37,028 bases of DNA, taken from the IMG/VR virus record IMGVR_UViG_2690316076_000004, one strand, 5' to 3'. Both the position numbers and the translations under genes were made by a program. The DNA is from a virus (Duplodnaviria; Heunggongvirae; Uroviricota; Caudoviricetes). Positions within the stretch are counted from its first letter, which is position 1. Each line of letters begins with the position of its first letter. Shown one piece after another: positions 1,614 to 34,834 of this stretch. The notes beneath the pieces were generated by a model. The model saw nothing but the letters and a program-made list of their open reading frames with translations. It was not told where the DNA came from and did not search any database.

Positions 1614-1653
1614 GCCCCTATCGTTATAATACGCGGTAGGGGCGTTTTTGTTT
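1614..1653 (+). terminator. putative intrinsic terminator
   Basis: GCCCCTA...TAGGGGC stem followed by GTTTTTGTTT. Confidence 0.5.
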
Positions 1654-1662
1654 GGAAATGGT

Positions 1663-3342
1663 ATGAAAACTAAACTGTATTCGTATATTCGCTTCTCGTC
1701 TATGCGTCAGAATGATGGTTCGAGTTATGAACGACAAATCAGGATGGCGAGAGAGGTTGCGGCAAAGTATGACCTTGAACTGGTAAATGATTATCAGGAT
1801 CTGGGTGTATCTGCGTTTAAGGGTGCTAACTCTAAAACAGGGGCGCTATCTCGTTTCCTTGATGCAATTGGTAGATCCGTTCCTGTTGGTAGCTGGCTAT
1901 TCATTGAAAACTTGGACCGCTTATCCCGTGCCGATATTGTCAGTGCGCAGGAGTTATTCCTTTCAATCATCCGTAGGGGGATAACCATTGTTACTGGCAT
2001 GGATAACAAGATCTACTCGCTGGATACTGTTACCGCTAACCCGATGGACCTGATGTTCTCCATCCTTTTATTCATCCGTGGTAATGAGGAAAGCCAGACT
2101 AAGCGCAATCGTACTAACTCAAGCGCACTGATTAAGATTAAAGCTCATCAAGAAAATCCACAAAATCCGGCAGTGGCAATCGAGGAAGTTGGAAAGAATA
2201 TGTGGTGGACTGATACCACTTCCGGTTATGTGTTGCCTCATCCTACATACTTCCCTGTTGTTCAGGAGATTGTGGAATTACGGAAGAATGGACGTTCAAC
2301 CGCCGAAATACTGGATCACCTTAACGAGACATATACACCGCCACCAGCAGTAAGCAACAAGAAGCATTCAAAATGGTCACGGGCAATGGTTGAAAGGTTG
2401 TTCCATACCCGCGCTTTGATTGGTATCAAGGAAGTCTCTGTAGATGGTGTTAACTATGAGTTAAAGGATTATTACCCTCGTGTTATTGATGATGCTACGT
2501 TCTATCACCTTAAGAAAAATATTGGTGCTAGAGCATGGAACTTTGGAGACAAGGAAGAAGTTAAACCGATCCCCCTGCTTAGTGGTATTGGCCTATTGAA
2601 ATGTGATCATTGCGGTTGCGCTATGGTTAAAGTGAAGGGAACGAACAAACGTTCTGACCAGTATCGTTATACATGTGATGCGACCCGTTCACGTAGACTT
2701 GATTGCGAGCATCCAAACTGGAGTTTTCGAGGTGATCAATTAGAGAAAGCTGTATTGCAATTGCTGGCTGATAAAATATGGATTGCTGAGGACAAGGCTA
2801 ATCCGGTTCCGGCGTTGAAAGTACAGGTTGATGAAATATCACGCAAGATTGATAACCTGATTGCCCTTTCTGCTATGACAGGAGCAACGAAGGAGCTAGC
2901 CGATCAGATTACTACCCTCAATAGCGAGCGTGAAACACTCTACAATCAGATCAAGATGGCAGAAGAGGAAATGTATTCTGTGGACTCTCAAGGCTGGGAG
3001 AAGCTCGCAGAATTTGATTTAGAAGATGTTTATAACGAGGAACGACTAAAGGTCCGGTTTAAGATTAAGCAAGCTCTAAAGCGGATCGGGTGTAGCAGGA
3101 TTGACAGAAACAAAAACTTGTTTGTACTGGAATACATCGATGGAAAAACCCAGAGAGTTGTAATAGAAAATTCAAGAGGAACGAGGAAAGGCCGGATCTT
3201 CATTGATTTGAAGACTATCAATGATAGGCAGATTCTGGAGAGCAACGGGCTTGTTCTGCATCCATGTTTAGACATGCTGACAGATAAGAACTGGAAACCA
3301 GAAGAGGAAATACCAGGTCCATTACAGGAATTTGGAATTTAA
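1663..3342 (+). CDS. large serine recombinase (resolvase/integrase family)
   Basis: N-terminal resolvase catalytic pattern (YSYIRFSS...Q), recombinase domain, Cys-rich zinc ribbon (CDHCGC...CDATRSRRLDCEH), C-terminal coiled-coil; track start at 1648 is TTG, ATG at 1663 preferred. Confidence 0.85.
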   Translation: MKTKLYSYIRFSSMRQNDGSSYERQIRMAREVAAKYDLELVNDYQDLGVSAFKGANSKTGALSRFLDAIGRSVPVGSWLFIENLDRLSRADIVSAQELFLSIIRRGITIVTGMDNKIYSLDTVTANPMDLMFSILLFIRGNEESQTKRNRTNSSALIKIKAHQENPQNPAVAIEEVGKNMWWTDTTSGYVLPHPTYFPVVQEIVELRKNGRSTAEILDHLNETYTPPPAVSNKKHSKWSRAMVERLFHTRALIGIKEVSVDGVNYELKDYYPRVIDDATFYHLKKNIGARAWNFGDKEEVKPIPLLSGIGLLKCDHCGCAMVKVKGTNKRSDQYRYTCDATRSRRLDCEHPNWSFRGDQLEKAVLQLLADKIWIAEDKANPVPALKVQVDEISRKIDNLIALSAMTGATKELADQITTLNSERETLYNQIKMAEEEMYSVDSQGWEKLAEFDLEDVYNEERLKVRFKIKQALKRIGCSRIDRNKNLFVLEYIDGKTQRVVIENSRGTRKGRIFIDLKTINDRQILESNGLVLHPCLDMLTDKNWKPEEEIPGPLQEFGI

Positions 3343-17829: not shown

Positions 17830-20800
17830 TTAACCAAATAATTTTGCTTCAATAGCAGCAAGACGTTCACGAAGGATTTTATTTTCTTCGCTCATTTCTT
17901 GAATTGCTTTGATTAAAAGCGCGTTCACTGCGGAGTTTGAAATTGTTAAAATCTCTTCTGGGTTATCAAGACCACCAATTTTTGCGGTTTTAACAGCTTC
18001 CGGTAATACCTCTTGTAAATCCTGTGCGATAATACCAATCTCATGACCTATAACTTCTCGGTCATTAAGAGATTTAACTTTATCGTAGGTTTTAACTTTG
18101 AGTTTATTTACCTTATCTACCGCATTTTCTTCGTAGTCTTCAACATTAATTTTCAGACGACGGTCGGAACGAATATACACATCGTTAAAGTTACCATTAC
18201 CTGGAGAATAGAAAGTGCCATCATGATGGAACTCGTAGACAGCTTGAGGATGACCAGCAGCAGGTGAGTTTTCCGCAGATCCAACACGAATAATTGCTTG
18301 TCCCCAATTGTTGGGGACACGACGCATACCAAAATCGACGGCAGTTGTATACCCTTGATTGGTTATTAAACTTCTTCCTTTGATAATCGGATAATAACAG
18401 TCCTGTGAAACATAACCATGATCGACGAATATTGGAGCTTCTAATGACCATTGGTCATTCCATGCGCCAGATTGGCTAGCAGTCCAACGTTCACCGTGAA
18501 CATAGAATCGAACGTTATTGACATGAGTCATTTCGACGCCTTTCGGACTTAGCGCGATATCCCCCGCATTTGTAATGTTTATGGCAGCATTAGTAGCATA
18601 GCTATAGAACGCTAATCCATTATCAGCGCCACCTTTACCGATATACCAGTTGTTATTATCAGCACAAGTACCCAACAAATATATAGACGAATCTCCACTT
18701 TCGGCATTCATGATGATTGCGTCAGATCCACGATTAACTTTCAGTTTCCCGAAAAATGTGTTTTTAATGGTATTATCACCCAATCGTTCAAATTCTGCGA
18801 AAAATCCTTTTGAGTCACGAAGACTTAAAACGTTATTTCGACCTGTATTGCTTGCCCCCCAATGGACGAGTTCCATATAGTCCATAGATTGACGAGAACC
18901 AGCTTTAAACAAAAGGTTGTCTTCGAGACGAGTGCTACCATCAATCCCAAGATGTAAACACCGAGCGGTCGTTGTGCCCCCTAGATCCAATCCACCCTCA
19001 GCGAAATCATAACTAAATGGTCTACGATTATTCCAATTTCCAAAAGAATCTTTTAAATCGGTAGTCAGTATATGGAAACCAGTACCATCATTTCTAAAAA
19101 TTAAGCCATAATTGCCACCTTTAACAGCCAAACGCGCATTTTCAGATAATGCAACTTCGCTATTCATTACAATTTTCTGGCCTTTACCACCAGTAATATG
19201 TAATTCACCATCTTCAATCAGGTTTATCGAGTTTTGACCGTTATCGTTCCACCAAATAAAATCTTTGGTCTGACCATCACCGAAGCCAAACCAGCCATTA
19301 CGAACATCTGTACCAGTGCGATAATCAAAGAAGTTTAAATGACATGATTCATTTGGACCACGACGAAAATCAATTGCTGAGTTTCCACCTAAACCGCCAT
19401 CAATGGTCATTCTACGAATATGCAAACCGGATGCAGCCGACAGCAATAATTGTTGGTTTACATCATCGTATCCAGTAGCAAGACGATAATTCTGATCATC
19501 TACAGTTTCATGCCAGATAGTAGCGGGTGCGGAACTACGGAAGCGACGCAACTTTTTCTTAGCATTTGTTTGTTGTTCGTTCAAATGCTCAATGTCATAT
19601 TGGCCTTGATGGTTTCCACCAAAATTTAACGTTCCACGGTTGCTAAAGTTATTGAATGATGAAATGTTAAGAGCATCAAAAATTTCATCTGCAACAGGTT
19701 TTTCACCACCCAGATATTCAGGAGTATCCAACAGGTTTAAAGAAACACCACCGGACGAAACTTGATATTCTGCTAAAACAAATCCTGTATGTGCACCGTA
19801 GTAAGCGTAAAGATCGTAATTATCGCCATCGGTAGGAATTGCGCAAAAATATTGTTCGTAATACCAAATGCTATAATAAGCATTGAATACAACACCTTTC
19901 GGGCTATTGTTGCCGCAACGGATCACCAGTTCAATAACATTGGCTTGTCCATTCTGTCCGACGTTATAACCGTTACCACCAACCAAACGAATCTTAGCGG
20001 TGCGACCGTGTTGTTGTGGCATTGTCAAAGTGCCTAGTTTAAACCAACCGCCCTCGATACCAAAATTAAGCGTCTTCTGGAACAGTCGGTCAATTTCTGC
20101 TTTCGAATATGCGCCAATTTCGGCAGGAGTAGGTTTATCACCTTCATGATACATGCGGTGAGAATATGCCAAATGACCCAATTCATCATAGCCGTATGTT
20201 CTTACCGTAGCATGTGGATTAGACCCATAAGTGAACTCAAAACCACGAGCATGATTAACACCGGATGGATGTGGAACATGCAAGATCATAGCAATATGAT
20301 CAGCTAGATCATTGGTACGGAATGCACCAAAGTAATCAAGATTACGAGCACCTGGATCATCAAAATAGTTTGCGGTCTTAGACAGCAAATAACCATCAGT
20401 ATAAGTGTTTACGTGTTTTTTGATGTACTTACCGTCACTAGATCCATCGGCTGCATCAATACGGCTTTCTAAACGTGCAAGTTCGGAATCGGTGTAAGAC
20501 TTGTTATTGTCAACTTTGCTATGAATTGCTGAATTTTTGGCTTCAACATCACGGGTTAATGCTGCGACGTTATCCGCTGCCTCTTGCTTATTGGCTGCAA
20601 TCACACCAGTAAGGTTATTGTAGGTGTCAGTTAACTGATTTTCCGCATAGGCTTTATTTGCTGCGATAGTCCGATCAGTCTCGGCCTTAATCAAATCAAC
20701 CTTGTCATTGATTGCTTTGTCATTGCTTGCGATGGTTGCATCGGTACGGGATTTAATATCATCAACTTTTTTATTGATGCGGGTGTCCAGTTCCTGTGTT

Positions 20801-27191: not shown

Positions 27192-29099
27192 TTAGAACGA
27201 TGTTACCCAGCTACGGCCTCTATTTGGGCGTCTGGCGATGTTTTGACGTTGCGGTCGTGTGATTGGCTTAGTTTCTTCTATTTGCTCGTCAGATTGCGAT
27301 TTAGGAGCTTCTACGGATTCTTCGACAACACGGTTTAAGCTGTCTTTCATTGCAATGAGTTTATCCCATGACATTTTTGAAAGAACGTAGCGAGAAGCAG
27401 CATAGCTATAAACCAGACAGTCGAGAGCCTCGTTTCGGGTACTACCTGGATTTTTCACCCAACGCACGCCAGTAGTAGTACGCTTGATGGATTCACTCAA
27501 AAGCTGATCGAGATAATCATCAGGAACGGTTTCTGATATTTCTAAGCCAATATGAGGATTATCTTTCAGGTTTCTAACCAGCATTTCACGAACAGCGGAT
27601 TTCCCAACGTTAACACCCAGCATAAGCAATTCATGACCACCTGTACGGGTAGGTTTAACCGGAATCACTGGAGCATTACCAGATGAACTACCTTTGATAG
27701 CGTGTAGGTTCTTCCACTTGCCGCAAATACGGTATCCGGCTTGAGTGAATCGACCGTTCGATGTATCAAGGAAACTGGCGAGCATTGGTACACGTTCACC
27801 ATTAACGTTATAGAATTTGGTTTTCTTGAAGTTAACCAGACGATCCCAAACAGGTGATTCATATCGTTCACAGTTATGATCGTAAAAGCTGCGGTGATCC
27901 AGAATGTAAACCTTATCTTTCGCTACACCTAAGATGGTAGATTCTGCGCGGTCCAATTGCTGGTCAATTCCTGAGCACAAGAAAATCACGTCATCAGGGA
28001 TATTCTCGATAGAAACATCTGTTTTGAGTTGTTCCAGTTCATTTGCTTCTACTGCCGTGTCCTGATCGTCGTATACCTTGCCTAACACGGTGTTATAAAA
28101 TGATTGTAAATCAAAGGATTGCCACGCATGGCTAAAATCAACAACACAAGCGCGGATCGTGCTGAAAGGTGAATACAGACGGCTAATCCAGAATCCAGCT
28201 ACTTCACTTTCTCTCGTTACTCGCCATTCACCAGCAGCCACCGCCCTGATCCGCTCTCCTTCTGTCCATGCGTTCTTACAGTGGGGGCAAATATAACGAG
28301 CGGTATCAGGATCGGGTAAGTTCTTACCATCGATGTTACGCCATTCAAATTGAACGTTTTCCCACTCGATCACCTGGTGTTCCCCGCAATGAGGACACGG
28401 AACAAAAAACATACGCATATCGCTTGATAACCATTGCTGGTTAATGCTTCCGAGCTTACTGGTCGGGGTGCTGGATACGACTAATCGACCTTCATCGCCA
28501 AAGGTAGTTAAACGGTTAGCAGCCAGTGCCACCGGATCACCTTCTTCTGAGGCTGTAGCAGCATCGATTTCGTCAAGTAATCCAACCTTTGCGGTCTTAC
28601 CGCGTAGGGTTGATGGACTGGTAAGCGATACCATGTAAAGGAAGTGATTCGTTTTTAGCTGTAGCTGGTTATTGTTGTTAACCGCATTGCGATCATTCTT
28701 GTCTGTAACAACGTCTTTTAATGCATCACATGCTTCGATAGACGGTCGGATCTTACCAGCGAGATATTGAGACATTTCTTTAGCGGTTGATTGTCCGATA
28801 ATCATATTGCATGGATCGTTAGCCATCTGGTTAAACAGGATACCGTTCAGGATGGTAGTCTTTCCGATCTGTGCACTGGTCATCAGGACATACTTTTTCT
28901 TGTTCTCAAGGAAAGGTGCATCAATCATGCCTTTTTGGAATGACAACAATTTAACTTTATCCCCAGCTTGAGGACCATCTACCAGCACCATATTCGCTTC
29001 GCACCATTCAGACGGAAGGAGTTTAGGCGGTGGAGTGATATATTTTGCGGCATTTTTAAGAATCTTTTTTAATTTGGCCTTGTTCGAAATCAGTTTCAT
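27192..29099 (-). CDS. terminase large subunit, lambda gpA-like
   Basis: [26 protein letters not shown] (Walker A-like), [21 protein letters not shown] all mirror remembered gpA motifs; ATG at 29099 with GAGGG RBS preferred over track start 29174. Confidence 0.93.
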
Positions 29100-29142
29100 G
29101 TAATTACCCTCATTACGAAATATGAAGGTATTTATTAAATTG

Positions 29143-29170
29143 TTGATATTTTGATAAATACGGGTATTAA
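29143..29170 (+). promoter_or_regulatory. candidate sigma70-type promoter in divergent terL/HTH-gene intergenic region
   Basis: TTGATA (29143-29148), 16-nt spacer, TATTAA (29165-29170), about 15 nt upstream of the 29185 ATG. Confidence 0.35.
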
Positions 29171-29184
29171 TCAAAGGGGGTTGT

Positions 29185-29787
29185 ATGCTAATTAATCAGC
29201 AAGAAAGAGATGAATTAGAATTAGCCTTGTCTTGTACCGATCATGAATATCGTTTGCCAGTTAAGCACCATCACAAGAAGACTGATTACACAACATCCGG
29301 CTTTAGTCGCGAGGAAGCGAAGCAAATTTTAATAGAGTTGTATCGCGATCAGGGATATACAGATATTCACAACTTCTTTAAGAAGCACCGAACATCACAG
29401 ACAGAGTTCCAGAGAGTCCGTGAATGGTTTGATTTTGATATCAAGCGTTATTATCGAGTGGATGACGGTCCGATCTATCGGTTGCAGTGGACACCGATCA
29501 GGGAAGTGTTGAAACAGAAGAGACTAAATCACGCTATTACACGCTATCGTAACGTGGCTTTTAAGAAAGGATATGGTGATACAAGGGAACTATTCGTTGA
29601 ACTCGCTAACGTGCGATATAGCCATTATTACAGGAATCCTAAAGAGTTCTTCGAAGTGCTGCGCAAGGTTGATATAAGTCGGGGTACATACTATTCACGG
29701 TTGAAGAAGTACGGGATTAAGGCAGAGTTCTTTATGAGTATTGACGATGGAGAACTTTTTCCGATAAAATGTAAGTCCTCTAAATAA
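29185..29787 (+). CDS. HTH DNA-binding protein (C-terminal resolvase-type helix-turn-helix)
   Basis: C-terminal [15 protein letters not shown] resembles Hin/resolvase-type HTH; AAGGGGG RBS. Confidence 0.5.
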
Positions 29788-29815
29788 AGGTGAACATTCA
29801 CTTTAATTTGGAGAA

Positions 29816-30046
29816 ATGACTATGACTACTAAAGCTACTCGCGGTCGTCCTTGCCGTTTTGATCGTGAACAACTGGCAGCGATTGTAAAAGCGTACTATC
29901 AAGCACCGAAAGGTAAAGCCGAAAAAGAGCAAGTATTGAGTGAACACGGTATTTCAATCGCTCAATTCTACAAATCACTCCATAAAGTTGATTTGAAATT
30001 CTTTGTTCAGGTTGACGGTGAAATGGTAGAAGCAACAGGAATTTGA
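29816..30046 (+). CDS. small HTH protein, paralog of 33578-33757
   Basis: RGRPCRFDREQL ... GISIAQFYKSL parallels MARPVKFTREMI ... GIDRSGFYKLM in the 33578 gene; GGAG RBS. Confidence 0.5.
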   Translation: MTMTTKATRGRPCRFDREQLAAIVKAYYQAPKGKAEKEQVLSEHGISIAQFYKSLHKVDLKFFVQVDGEMVEATGI

Positions 30047-30086: not shown

Positions 30087-30314
30087 CGCTCAAAACTGAG
30101 CACATCTCTAAGTCATTGATTCTTCCGATGAGTCCAGATTTGGACTGATCTATAGATGCCCTCAAAACTGAGGAGATGTGCTTAAAGTTCAGCGTATCTA
30201 TCTAAGTGGTTGATTCTTTCGAGAAATTCAAACTTGAATCAATCGGCGCAAAACTGCGCTCATCTCTAACCTATTGATTCTTCCGATAAATCCAAATCTG
30301 GATGCATCAGATAC
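30087..30314. repeat. three-unit degenerate repeat (~70-85 bp each) with IHF-consensus motifs and short palindromes
   Basis: units start CAAAACTG(A/C)G; each contains ATTGATTCTT whose complement fits WATCAANNNNTTR, followed by GTCCAGATTTGGAC / ATTCAAACTTGAAT / ATCCAAATCTGGAT near-palindromes. Confidence 0.7.
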
Positions 30315-31606: not shown

Positions 31607-31662
31607 GTTACATCCTCTTTACAAATCTAGGTCAAATAGGTTCAAAGTTGTCAAGTGCGATA

Positions 31663-31726: not shown

Positions 31727-32185
31727 TTACAGCATATCTAAGCCTTCATCGTAACCGTAGAAGCCATTCTGAGAAGAGAAACAGATTGGAGCGTAGTCTT
31801 CGTCTTCCTCATCTTCTTCATCTTGTTCTGGGGCTTCCTGAGCGGGTTGTTTACCGTAATCAGCCATAATCTGGTCAAGATCGGCGATCCCATAGTAAGA
31901 GCCTAAATCAACATCGTATTCACGAACATCAAACGGCAGGTCATCACGAACAATAATTGCTGGTAGATTCTGGTATTGTTCACGATCTTCATCAGTGAAG
32001 CAGTCAACTACCACCGTAGGACGACCATTGCGTTTAAGAGCATAGAAAGCAGTTGAATAGTTGGAGTCTTCGGAATGACGAATGATGTTATAACCACGAT
32101 TAGCGAAAACTTCTAGCATATGGAAGTTGCCGTAGTTTTCAGAGTCCAGACCCAGAAGTACGAAAGGAGTTTTAGTATTGATCAT
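31727..32185 (-). CDS. acidic protein (C-terminal Asp/Glu run)
   Basis: 152-aa ORF with AGAGGA RBS; C-terminus EAPEQDEEDEEDEDY. Confidence 0.55.
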   Translation of the reverse strand: MINTKTPFVLLGLDSENYGNFHMLEVFANRGYNIIRHSEDSNYSTAFYALKRNGRPTVVVDCFTDEDREQYQNLPAIIVRDDLPFDVREYDVDLGSYYGIADLDQIMADYGKQPAQEAPEQDEEDEEDEDYAPICFSSQNGFYGYDEGLDML

Positions 32186-32766
32186 AGTGGTATCCTCTAA
32201 AAAGAAAGTGAATCAATCTAATATTATTTATAAAGAGAAAATTCTTGTTATTATGAAAGGTGATTGGATTCAGTCGGCTTCGCCTCCTTCATGATTTTTG
32301 ATTAAATCATCGTCAAAACGAAGAAGTATCTTTAGAATATAAGAATCTTTCTTTTGGAGAAATAATAATCAGGAAGCAATTTAGCAACCGAAGGTTGCAA
32401 TCCCGAAGGGATACCAATACCTTTCATGATCATTAAAGTGATTATTACTATCTTTCTAGAATCAGTTAGTAACTAGTTTAAAATCCCTTTCGAGAAAATC
32501 CTTTCAGAAGTGATTCTCGATGCCACGCAGTGGCGTCGCAGACGTTTGAGAGTGAGCGAAGCGAGCGAGCAAACTAGTTAATTCCTTCTAAGACCATCTA
32601 GTATCATCTAGTTTAAATTAGTTGTTACTAGAAGCAATTGGTTGGCGCTTCGCGCAGTCGGGCTAAAGCCCTCCTAATATCTTTCTGGTTATTTGTTGTT
32701 TTTAGTTTTACACATGAGCGTAGCGAATGTGTTATATAATATCTATGCACGCCGAATCCCTGCTTT

Positions 32767-33010
32767 TGCCCCTCGCTAAGTTAATGTTTTATAAAGAGTT
32801 TTTCTCACCAATTCCTTTCAGGGGCAAATTTCAGGGGCAAAAATTAGATTTTCAGGGGCAATTATTGGCATTTCAGGGGCAAAAATGAGGGGCAAAATCA
32901 CCGTTTCCCAGAATTTCAGGGGCAAAAATATAGGGTTTCAGGGGCAAAAATGGGATGTGGAATCTAGGGGATTTTGGTTCAGGGGCAAAAATTCAGAATT
33001 TCAGGGGCAA
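32767..33010. repeat. iteron-like array of TTCAGGGGCAA
   Basis: exact 11-mers at 32817, 32830, 32851, 32872, 32915, 32937, 32978, 33000, variants at 32886 and ~32963, one inverted core at 32767-32775; spacing mostly 21-22 bp or multiples. Confidence 0.85.
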
Positions 33011-33100
33011 TTCCCATCAAATATTTTGATAGAAAATTCCTGTATATTATTTAATCAAAAAATCACCAAAAAGCGGCGTAAGTTAATGATTTAAAAAGAA

Positions 33101-33126
33101 TTGTCAAAAGGTCTCCGTGCTATAAT
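33101..33126 (+). promoter_or_regulatory. possible extended -10 promoter
   Basis: TTGTCA then TGC-TATAAT (TGnTATAAT) at 33118-33126; -35 spacing suboptimal (14 nt). Confidence 0.3.
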
Positions 33127-33206
33127 AGGTTATAAAGGTTGATAATCCTGCTCTACCATTTTCAAACAAAAATTTTGATAGTCATTTCTCGCTTAGGTCA
33201 AGTGTA

Positions 33207-33235
33207 TTGACAACTGTCAAGGATTATTTTATACT
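33207..33235 (+). promoter_or_regulatory. strong sigma70-type promoter
   Basis: TTGACA (33207-33212), 17-nt spacer, TATACT (33230-33235); overlaps TTGACAA/TGTCAA near-palindrome. Confidence 0.5.
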
Positions 33236-33371
33236 TTTTCTCACTGGTGGGGGTTGAAATTTTCTAAACAGTCCCCATATAGATGATAAGCAAGAATTTC
33301 CACGTTATAAATACATGTGTGAAATGATTGTTCACTTCTGAAAATCTCCTGATTCACTGCTAATTCATACA

Positions 33372-33400
33372 GCACTGGTTAGATATACAGTGCTTTTTCG
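33372..33400 (+). terminator. hairpin + T-tract (leader terminator/attenuator 1)
   Basis: AGCACTG-GTTAGATATA-CAGTGCT followed by TTTT. Confidence 0.4.
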
Positions 33401-33457
33401 GTTGAATATTGTACGAATTGATTAATAATTAATCTTCTCTTTAGCAATTCGTGCTCC

Positions 33458-33484
33458 CACTGATCGGATATACAGTGGTTTTAC
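33458..33484 (+). terminator. hairpin + T-tract (leader terminator/attenuator 2)
   Basis: CCACTG-ATCGGATATA-CAGTGG followed by TTTTA; same CACTG..GATATA..CAGTG architecture as 33372. Confidence 0.4.
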
Positions 33485-33523
33485 AGGGTTTTCTGAAAAT
33501 CATTTTATAAATACAAGTGTTCA

Positions 33524-33544
33524 GAGCGAAATGCTCTTTTTTAA
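33524..33544 (+). terminator. hairpin + T-tract directly upstream of small HTH gene
   Basis: AGAGC-GAAAT-GCTCT followed by TTTTTT, about 20 nt before the RBS of the 33578 gene. Confidence 0.45.
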
Positions 33545-33577
33545 GAAATTATTAATCCACATGTGAGGAATCGACTG

Positions 33578-33757
33578 ATGGCTAGACCTGTTAAGTTCAC
33601 TCGTGAAATGATTGTTGATATTGCTAAACGCTTTTACAGCGACACTGAGCGAGGCGGGGAAAACTTCTTTAAGAAGGAAGGAATTGATAGAAGCGGATTC
33701 TACAAGCTAATGAAGAAATACGAAATTCAGGTAAAGATTAACGTTCAAGTTTGTTAA
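33578..33757 (+). CDS. small HTH protein, paralog of 29816-30046
   Basis: ATG at 33578 with TGAGGAA RBS (track start 33563 is GTG); sequence parallels the 76-aa protein. Confidence 0.5.
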   Translation: MARPVKFTREMIVDIAKRFYSDTERGGENFFKKEGIDRSGFYKLMKKYEIQVKINVQVC

Positions 33758-33871: not shown

Positions 33872-34834
33872 ATGTTATTTTCCGCTAACTTTTTCACTAA
33901 CGAAGTAACCAACGCTAAAGCAGTTATCAAATTTGGCACCGAAGCAAACAAGAAGATTCAGCCGAAAGTTGTTGCTCATGTTTCCTTTGCGCAGCAGAAA
34001 TCCGCTTTCGCTGGCTTTAAAGCACATCGTGAAGCACTGATCGCGGCTGGCTTTGGTGTTGACGGTAAACTGCCTAACGGCATTCGTAAAGCAATCGACC
34101 GCGTTAAACCTGCTAAAGACGTTGCAGTAGACCACATCGTTACTTTCACCGTTAAGAACTCTTCTGAACTGTTCCACCTAGTGATTGCTGGTGATACTGC
34201 TATCGTTTCCGCTCCTAACATGGATTTTCAGGATACCGCTGATTGCAACATTACCTTTGGTCGTCGTAAAGAAGTTACCGGAAAAGCTAAACTGAACTTC
34301 ACCAAATCCGGCAATCCTTACTTTGCTGTATTCTTTAACAGCCACGCTACTGAGAAAGAAGTAGTAGAACTGGTTGCATATGAAGGTGAAGAAAAAGCAC
34401 GTATTGAATCTTGCGACGCTTTCGTAGAACTGGAAGCACAGGTTAATGCTGTTTCTCCGGTTGCTGTTGAAGATCGTTTCTCTGCACTGGAAGCACAGAT
34501 CGCAGAACTGAAAGCTGCACTGAAAGAAAAAGACCAGATCATCGAAGCACAGAAAGCTGAGATTGAAGAACTGAAAGCTAAAGAAGTTGCTCCGGTTGCT
34601 GTTGAAGCAGATCGGGAAGTTGAATCTAAAGACTTCTTTACTCAAGCGGTTGAATCTAAAGACAAACAAGCTCTTTGGATTCTGCTTAACGAAAAGCGTA
34701 CTGTTGCAGACGTTGCAGAATGGAACAAATACCTGATTAAGAAAAATGGTTCTTCCGTTCAATTCATCGATTTAATGACAGTTAAAGTTTTTGATGCGTT
34801 CGAAAATGTGTTCGACGTTCGCAAAGCAGCTTAA
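33872..34834 (+). CDS. hypothetical protein with host-like high-expression codon usage and central coiled-coil
   Basis: 320-aa ORF with AGGAG RBS; codons dominated by CTG, CGT, GGT, AAC, GAC, ACC unlike the AT-rich structural genes; coiled-coil EAQIAELKAALKEKDQIIEAQKAEIEELKAK. Confidence 0.65.
   Translation: MLFSANFFTNEVTNAKAVIKFGTEANKKIQPKVVAHVSFAQQKSAFAGFKAHREALIAAGFGVDGKLPNGIRKAIDRVKPAKDVAVDHIVTFTVKNSSELFHLVIAGDTAIVSAPNMDFQDTADCNITFGRRKEVTGKAKLNFTKSGNPYFAVFFNSHATEKEVVELVAYEGEEKARIESCDAFVELEAQVNAVSPVAVEDRFSALEAQIAELKAALKEKDQIIEAQKAEIEELKAKEVAPVAVEADREVESKDFFTQAVESKDKQALWILLNEKRTVADVAEWNKYLIKKNGSSVQFIDLMTVKVFDAFENVFDVRKAA

Follow-up and report, generated by a model that had tools for sequence, protein, structure and literature searches.

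A hairpin-rich, exchangeable cassette co-varies with an orphan protein in a non-coding region of a temperate Escherichia coli phage

Introduction

In lambdoid phages, the N-terminal DNA-binding domain of the O protein co-varies with the iterons, both the remainder of O and the DNA nearby can be exchanged, and AT-rich DNA lies beside the iterons. Here we analyse a locus with several of these properties, positions 32186-32760 of a viral genome of 37,028 nucleotides (IMG/VR record IMGVR_UViG_2690316076_000004; this whole stretch of DNA is called the window below), which represents a siphovirus-like temperate phage of ~37 kb that resides as a prophage in E. coli. An earlier note, made from the letters alone, had described these 575 bp as a structured region free of open reading frames (ORFs), and had proposed that, with the adjacent iterons, it may be part of an origin, a structured RNA or a recombination site for the serine recombinase. 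The reading that we favour, to which we give an even chance, is that the right part of the stretch is an accessory portion of an iteron origin with a 320-aa orphan protein as the initiator, and that the left part is an accessory spacer that does not depend on cassette type.

Two further systems serve as reference points. Mini-hairpins of the GCGNAGC and CCGAAGG kinds have been described where replication initiates, namely at the phage G4 origin and ssiA of RSF1010, and also at N4 promoters (PMC13037366). PeSLs combine a consensus sigma-70 early promoter with a terminator stem-loop and are present in many copies per genome (PMC2839356). The phage family considered here is unstudied, and a literature search on it and on small RNAs of RB49 returned nothing relevant. 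Non-coding origins or control regions that are rich in repeats and hairpins and carry an exchangeable specificity module are a familiar kind of element; new here are a presumed initiator without known relatives and a palindrome shared with T4-type phages.

Results and Discussion

A cassette that matches the type of a distant protein domain

The whole intergenic region was aligned across 16 loci, and further loci were classified from IMG/VR and metagenomes. As the earlier note held, the stretch contains no credible ORF: none reaches 60 aa, those of 33-40 aa have disappeared or suffered frameshifts in relatives, and 16 related prophages carry no RefSeq annotation at this position. Its extent was drawn too short, the 575 bp being gene-free as described but representing only the left portion of a divergent non-coding region of 1.38 kb (32186-33577), which runs from the start of a 152-aa gene (32185, minus strand) to a 60-aa gene (~33578, plus strand). 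Related prophages always carry an unannotated gap at this place, of 1.27-1.46 kb. The region is mosaic in make-up: prophages with ~92% overall identity differ here by indels, swaps and copy number. Modules M0 to M8, an iteron array and an AT-rich segment can be distinguished (Table 1).

A cassette of ~500 bp occupies the middle of this region, with borders at ~32514 and ~33015. In the alignment, cassette types A and C diverge exactly at the start of M5, and all types converge again at ~33015. M5 corresponds to the GC-rich core of the earlier note; its GC content (32514-32570) is 61%, the averages for the region and the window being 36.5% and 41.5%. Of the two hairpin sequences named for this core, GCCACGCAGTGGC was recovered at 32522 by exact search; GAGCGAAGCGAGCGAGC is indeed present at 32554, only its GC-GAA-GC centre, however, forms a hairpin. 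The AT-rich repeats said to flank the core are likewise partly as described, ACTAGTTTAAA standing at 32472 and the copy at 32608 reading T followed by CTAGTTTAAA, a match at 10 of 11 positions. Further to the right, M7 takes a form common to types A, C and D, and M8 holds the DnaA-box-like TTTTACACA (32706-32714), an ACACAT..ATGTGT hairpin around GC-GTA-GC (32710-32732) and a TATATAAT. No integration host factor (IHF) consensus was found in 32186-32760.

The iterons form the core of the cassette and lie outside the 575 bp. In the window, which carries a type-A array, they are spaced at 21, 21, 43, 22 and 63 bp, multiples of 21-22 bp, and are thus helically phased; iterons of the other types are phased at ~11 bp, and the copy number across types is ~5-14. 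The four iteron families are unrelated to one another (A, CAGGGGCAA; B, CGGGGA; C, GTAGGTTT; D, GGAATCTTGGGG), and AT-rich DNA of 28-38% GC lies on either side of them. Type-A arrays also contain stray foreign iterons, such as a type-D-like GGAATCTAGGGGATTTT in the window (32959-32975) and a type-C AGTGTAGG just to the right of the iterons in five relatives (L002, L004, L005, L007 and L008).

Typing was possible for 51 loci in which the M5-M8 segment, the iterons and the N-terminal part of the 320-aa protein were all readable, and the three types agreed in every one of them (51/51, with no discordant case). The DNA between cassette and protein, comprising promoters, leader and the 60-aa gene, has variants of its own that are freely combined with these types. 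Cassette and protein domain thus stay associated without exception across DNA that recombines freely, and the best explanation for this is a functional match, in which the 320-aa protein would recognise the iterons. The arrangement resembles lambdoid ori/O modules in the co-variation of N-terminal domain and iterons, in the exchangeable surroundings and in the adjacent AT-rich DNA. It differs from lambda, where the iterons lie inside the O gene, in that the iterons of the window are ~850 bp upstream of the 320-aa gene, in the hairpin-rich GC core that is included in the cassette, and in the lack of sequence similarity to O.

Table 1. Coordinates of the modules of the non-coding region and of associated genes in the window
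Feature	Position	Strand	Description
Large serine recombinase gene	1648-3342		
gpA-type large terminase gene	27192-29174	-	
152-aa leftward gene	31727-32185	-	
M0	32186-32262	-	5' untranslated region of the 152-aa gene, with its presumed weak promoter
M1	32271-32292		CAGTC, hairpin GGC-TTC-GCC (32276-32284), TCCTTCAT; in the hairpin census
M2	32299-32371		73-nt imperfect palindrome with variable apical part
M3	32384-32412	+	Adjacent hairpins GCAACC-GAA-GGTTGC and ATCCC-GAA-GGGAT; in the hairpin census
M4	32413-32513		Repeat units CCTTTC, AAGTGAT, CTAGAATCAGTTAGTAACTAGTTTAAAA, AATCCCTTTC; CTAG-rich
M5	32514-32570	+	GC-rich core, left cassette end; hairpins GCCAC-GCA-GTGGC, CGTC-GCA-GACG, GC-GAA-GC
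M6	32571-32640		AT-rich CTAG-repeat segment; 18+18-nt palindrome 32597-32632 (inverted repeat I7); type-specific
M7	32645-32671	-	Double hairpin GCGC-TTC-GCGC (32645-32655), GGGC-TAAA-GCCC (32660-32671)
M8	32677-32815		T-rich stretch, type-specific; extends past 32760 up to the iterons
Iteron array	32816-33015	+	~9 (6-9) copies of TTTCAGGGGCAAAA; repeat family D1
AT-rich segment	33016-33200		28-34% GC; ATCAAATATTTTGAT-type palindromes, promoter-like sites; in all cassette types; candidate unwinding region
320-aa orphan protein	33872-34834	+	Variable N-terminal ~175 aa, then coiled coil, acidic tail

An orphan protein as possible initiator

The 320-aa protein exists in four N-terminal types that are 21-23% identical to one another. 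None of the four has a match in Pfam, PHROG or PDB or similarity to lambda O, deep protein searches returned only hypothetical proteins of Escherichia and Shigella, and the AlphaFold model is unusable (pLDDT, the predicted local distance difference test, of 40). On these results the protein is not assigned to a known Rep family. The C-terminal ~75 aa of the protein of the window are unlike those of the common type-A allele, most relatives being 100% identical over only 76% of the length; the tail is thus a second exchangeable module.

The repeats are direct, numerous, phased and AT-flanked, which is the layout of iteron origins, and on these grounds we infer that the cassette is an origin/initiator specificity module. 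The origin proposed earlier thereby gains support for the right ~250 bp of the stretch, which from ~32514 belong to a single cassette co-varying with the N-terminus of the 320-aa protein. The same does not hold for the left ~330 bp, which assort independently and are deleted or interrupted in some relatives. In such an origin, the N-terminal domain of the 320-aa protein would bind the helically phased iterons, the coiled coil would oligomerise the protein and the acidic tail would recruit host replication factors. The flanking AT- and T-rich DNA could then melt, and the single strands thus exposed, or transcripts that run into the origin, would fold into the short GC hairpins, which would serve as structural or priming signals, analogous to the ssi hairpins beside the iterons of RSF1010 oriV.

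The likeness to oriV of RSF1010 (IncQ) extends to phased direct repeats beside GC-rich and AT-rich segments and to short hairpins on both strands. Moreover, M3 shares the CCGAAGG mini-hairpin with RSF1010 ssiA (PMC13037366). Unlike RSF1010, the window has no RepA, RepB' or RepC homologues, its presumed initiator is an orphan, and the loops of M1 and M7 are not conserved. Among isolated phages none is close to this family, and no replication gene is recognisable in it. The pairing of cassette and protein provides a concrete, testable candidate for origin and initiator, and it defines four natural specificity types that could be exchanged by experiment.

Several observations weigh against an origin. 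Neither a primase nor a helicase gene can be recognised in the window, and the 320-aa protein could be placed in no known Rep or O family and given no Rep fold. The DnaA-box match at 32706, obtained with a relaxed consensus, is one of two in the window and not above chance, and the linkage of M5-M8 to the iterons, with which they are contiguous, may be mere adjacency. GNA loops are not maintained at M1 and M7, which weakens a specific priming model based on mini-hairpins, and such a mechanism is for this reason only a lead. M1-M4 are deleted in one relative (L040), and in E. coli HeN100 an insertion sequence (IS), IS5, lies within M4, though both prophages may be defective. Lastly, the observed co-variation is also what a cassette of repressor and operators predicts.

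An immunity cassette and the early promoters

The least unlikely of the alternatives, if still an unlikely one, is such an immunity or transcription-control cassette, with the 320-aa protein as type-specific repressor or activator, the repeats as operators and the hairpin DNA as terminators or insulators for divergent early operons. In phage immunity regions, a DNA-binding domain and the sites that it recognises typically form allelic cassettes, with which the co-variation agrees equally well; the region also sits between divergent promoters. Known repressors, however, use few palindromic operators, unlike the 8-14 direct repeats phased at 11 or 21-22 bp that are found here. The second M7 hairpin of type C with its T-run scores as a plus-strand terminator, in agreement with this alternative. 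The hairpins of the region are otherwise without T-runs; elsewhere in this phage, similar UUC- and GAA-loop hairpins with a T-run behind them serve as ordinary terminators.

The promoters themselves bear on this alternative. The 320-aa gene lies behind a near-consensus promoter at 33207-33235 (TTGACA-17-TATACT) and terminator-like hairpins, and the other strong early promoter is at 31691-31663. A different operator-like sequence, TAGGTCAA...TGTCAAG (repeats D6 and I18), overlaps both of these strong divergent promoters (31628-31655 and 33194-33221) and is likely a binding site of the true immunity repressor. Its presence on both promoters suggests that a separate repressor controls them and that the 320-aa protein has an early lytic function. 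Being downstream of the D6/I18 promoter and of terminator-like hairpins, the 320-aa gene is probably silent in the lysogen, and it fits better as an early lytic gene than as a lysogenic repressor.

Between 33207 and 33577, the rightward promoter is followed by a leader of ~335 nt with three elements that each consist of a hairpin and a T-run, two of them copies of a repeated unit (33368-33400 and 33453-33485) and the third at 33523-33537. The rightward operon may accordingly be controlled by attenuation or antitermination.

Short hairpins with conserved stems

The 575 bp are rich in small hairpins. A census of C-GNA-G triloop hairpins with stems of at least 3 bp counted six, against 0.24 expected, a number that was reached in none of 1000 dinucleotide shuffles. 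GCGNAGC heptamers are concentrated here as well, with four of the ten in the window falling in this 1.6% of the sequence, and CTAG occurs six times versus 2.1 times in shuffles (19 of 1000 shuffles reached six). The hairpin GCAACC-GAA-GGTTGC of the earlier note was confirmed by exact search as GCAACCGAAGGTTGC at 32384, and each of the two M3 hairpins contains CCGAAGG (32388-32394 and 32403-32409). The M1 module recurs at 32655-32675 as CAGTC-GGGC-loop-GCCC-TCCT.

Comparison among relatives, one of the checks proposed for this region, demonstrates that stems are perfectly paired in every variant, and that loops drift (TTC, TAC, TAAA, AAA, ATA, TA and CGCA/TGCG), many of them being GNA on one strand or the other. 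M1 exists in six variants with three perfect stems (GGC/GCC, GGGC/GCCC and TGGC/GCCA) and five loops, and the stems of M7 are perfect in 12 of 12 variants with TTC, TAC, TAAA or AAA loops. In four relatives (L013, L015, L039 and L046) the M3 pair is swapped in place for GACGCTC-loop-GAGCGTC plus TGC-GAA-GCA, and this replacement by a different pair in the same place argues for selection on pairing. The pattern fits single-stranded DNA as well as RNA. Stems of 3-6 bp are too short to extrude from duplex DNA, and any action of the hairpins would thus take place in single-stranded DNA or in RNA.

With its four GCGNAGC heptamers and six C-GNA-G hairpins in 575 bp, the stretch is comparable to the ssi and mini-hairpin signals of G4 type. 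Unlike those, it is part of a double-stranded phage DNA for which no single-stranded stage is known, and GNA is not kept in all variants (AAA, TAAA, ATA and TA also occur). At the presumed iteron origin, the hairpins may serve a function of this kind.

A palindrome shared with RB49-like phages

M2 is built to a fixed architecture, TGATTAAA-N7-CAAA-N(30-40)-TTTG-N9-TAATCA, and 7 of 9 variants have the same hairpin shape. Searches of phage and plasmid DNA collections gave a sole match to the region, the 75-nt one to Krischvirus; by BLAST, M2 matches 57 Krischvirus records, at 1-2 places per genome. Two tandem copies in RB49-like phages match the left 41 nt at 88-90% identity (E 7e-8 to 7e-11); in RB49 they are situated in the gene-free ORF165c/ORF164c intergenic region of 414 bp. 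Words shared elsewhere between that intergenic region and the window do not exceed chance, and there is no flanking protein in common. When viral contigs were searched with the architecture as a pattern, only this prophage family and Krischviruses were recovered, hits in GTDB being AT-rich chance matches.

Recovery in phages that are otherwise unrelated is among the arguments for one or more non-coding RNAs, a possibility that we regard as improbable. Here M2 and M3, M4-M7 or both would be transcribed into structured RNAs that serve in regulation, as primer or origin transcripts or as anti-defence decoys, with M2 exchanged horizontally with RB49-like phages. The conserved stems with free loops agree with this, one M5 variant pairs only via G-U on the plus strand, and the fold z-scores of 149-150-nt segments range from -1.6 to -3.1. 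In type C, a TTGTTA-18-TAGAAT promoter in M4 and the M7 terminator would frame a plus-strand transcript of ~165 nt, and one relative (L013) has a promoter matching 10 of 12 positions inside M2; the copy of the window, in contrast, has no matching promoter or terminator in 32186-32760. No Rfam family matches at its gathering score, with only chance-level matches at E up to 10, a scan for tRNA and tmRNA was negative, and no extended complementarity to E. coli genes or to the mRNA of the 320-aa protein was found.

The fold of M2 points in the same direction. Its consensus in RNAalifold retains 10 invariant pairs only, at -0.5 kcal/mol, and the strands fold equally well, without strand bias. As the pairs are invariant, the consensus energy negligible and the strands alike, M2 is a conserved DNA palindrome, any RNA role being hypothetical; a conserved RNA hairpin was rejected on the same figures. 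A conserved promoter was rejected too, the matches to -35 and -10 not being kept among variants.

Some features are shared with the PeSLs of RB49 and phi1, namely short, non-coding stem-loops of GGGC/GCCC type at the borders of shuffled modules and the involvement of RB49-like phages (PMC2839356). Unlike PeSLs, M2 lacks a conserved promoter and does not exceed one or two places per Krischvirus genome, and because of these differences in copy number and promoter content (PMC2839356) the match to RB49 was rejected as a PeSL.

Improbable, like the non-coding RNAs above, is the proposal that M2 with the trailing GC hairpins is a portable, structure-conserved element of single-stranded DNA or RNA, moved between temperate siphoviruses and lytic Krischviruses that share E. 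coli, and that, separately, the 320-aa family is a new class of iteron-binding initiators. If this were true, the element might act as a non-coding anti-defence decoy, or as a transferable signal that primes replication or assists an origin. Short non-coding elements are rarely common to a temperate and a T4-type lytic phage, and the sharing of M2 may point to a host interaction of both or to a route of recombination between them; the same phages also share tail-fibre DNA. In the window, the tail-fibre genes at 16869-20380 have ~84% DNA identity to long-tail-fibre genes of RB49-like Krischviruses, which indicates recent exchange between the temperate family and T4-type lytic phages. In one relative (L002) an IS3 element at 18715-19943 splits a tail-fibre gene.

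The left part and the possibility of recombination debris

To the left of the cassette, M0 has two blocks, AAAGAAAGTGAATCAA and TATTTATAA, that are conserved across the 16 loci. Its only sigma-70 match is weak (32251-32223, minus strand, 9 of 12 positions) and presumably represents the promoter of the 152-aa gene. M1-M4 assort independently of cassette type. The number of M4 units varies among relatives, the window having one fewer than most, and neither M4 variants nor the 60-aa gene correlate with cassette type. Considering the deletion of M1-M4 in L040 and the IS5 interruption in HeN100, the left part is probably dispensable for prophage maintenance. Next to an iteron origin, positions 32186-32513 could be a type-independent accessory, acting as insulator, as a binding site for host factors or as a recombination-prone spacer. 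The IS5-like element of HeN100 lies in the CTAG-rich M4, at 1322-2302 of the respective locus (L087).

That the region is scar tissue of recombination, a spacer in which short palindromes accumulate and mediate the shuffling of modules in the manner of PeSLs, with the promoter of the 152-aa gene as its only function, appears no more probable than an RNA. PeSL recombination does map to stem-loops of GGGC/GCCC type and to their loops (PMC2839356), and both the extreme mosaicism among prophages of ~92% identity and the tolerance of the region for deletion and IS insertion are as expected. Yet stems are always paired while loops change, hairpins are swapped for other hairpins rather than lost, and the terminal motifs and spacings of M2 are invariant across two phage groups, which together indicates purifying selection on structure or sequence.

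An attachment site or other site of the large serine recombinase, suggested by the earlier note and favoured by the presence of inverted repeats and by nothing else, is excluded for practical purposes, as the prophage-host junction lies in hicB beside the right end of the prophage, at a distance of ~3-4 kb, and all integrated relatives that were examined have the region inside the prophage, unbroken and colinear.

Prophage context and neighbouring sequences

Besides the genes of Table 1, the window encodes portal, capsid and tail proteins and a Rha-family regulator. Related prophages are present in 57-64 of 5426 complete E. coli genomes (~1%), 64 being the count for prophages ~92% identical to the window, all chromosomal; carrier strains include O55:H7 and enterotoxigenic E. 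coli (ETEC). Strain L3Cip3 carries the element in hicB, adjoining yncJ. The search for an isolated phage close to the window returned none, the best terminase match being 43% identical.

Two further sets of repeated sequences were noted outside the non-coding region. Three direct repeats of ~85 bp at 30100-30300, each with an exact IHF consensus on the minus strand (AATCAATGACTTA, AATCAACCACTTA and AATCAATAGGTTA), sit between two intrinsic terminators near the gpA-type terminase gene, and may be a cos or packaging array or a regulatory one. A helix-turn-helix-like motif (RP.KF.RE ... GI..S.FYK..KK), encoded within 29185-30046 and 33578-33757, recurs in the C-terminus of a 200-aa protein and in the 76-aa and 60-aa proteins, which appear to be paralogous DNA-binding proteins.
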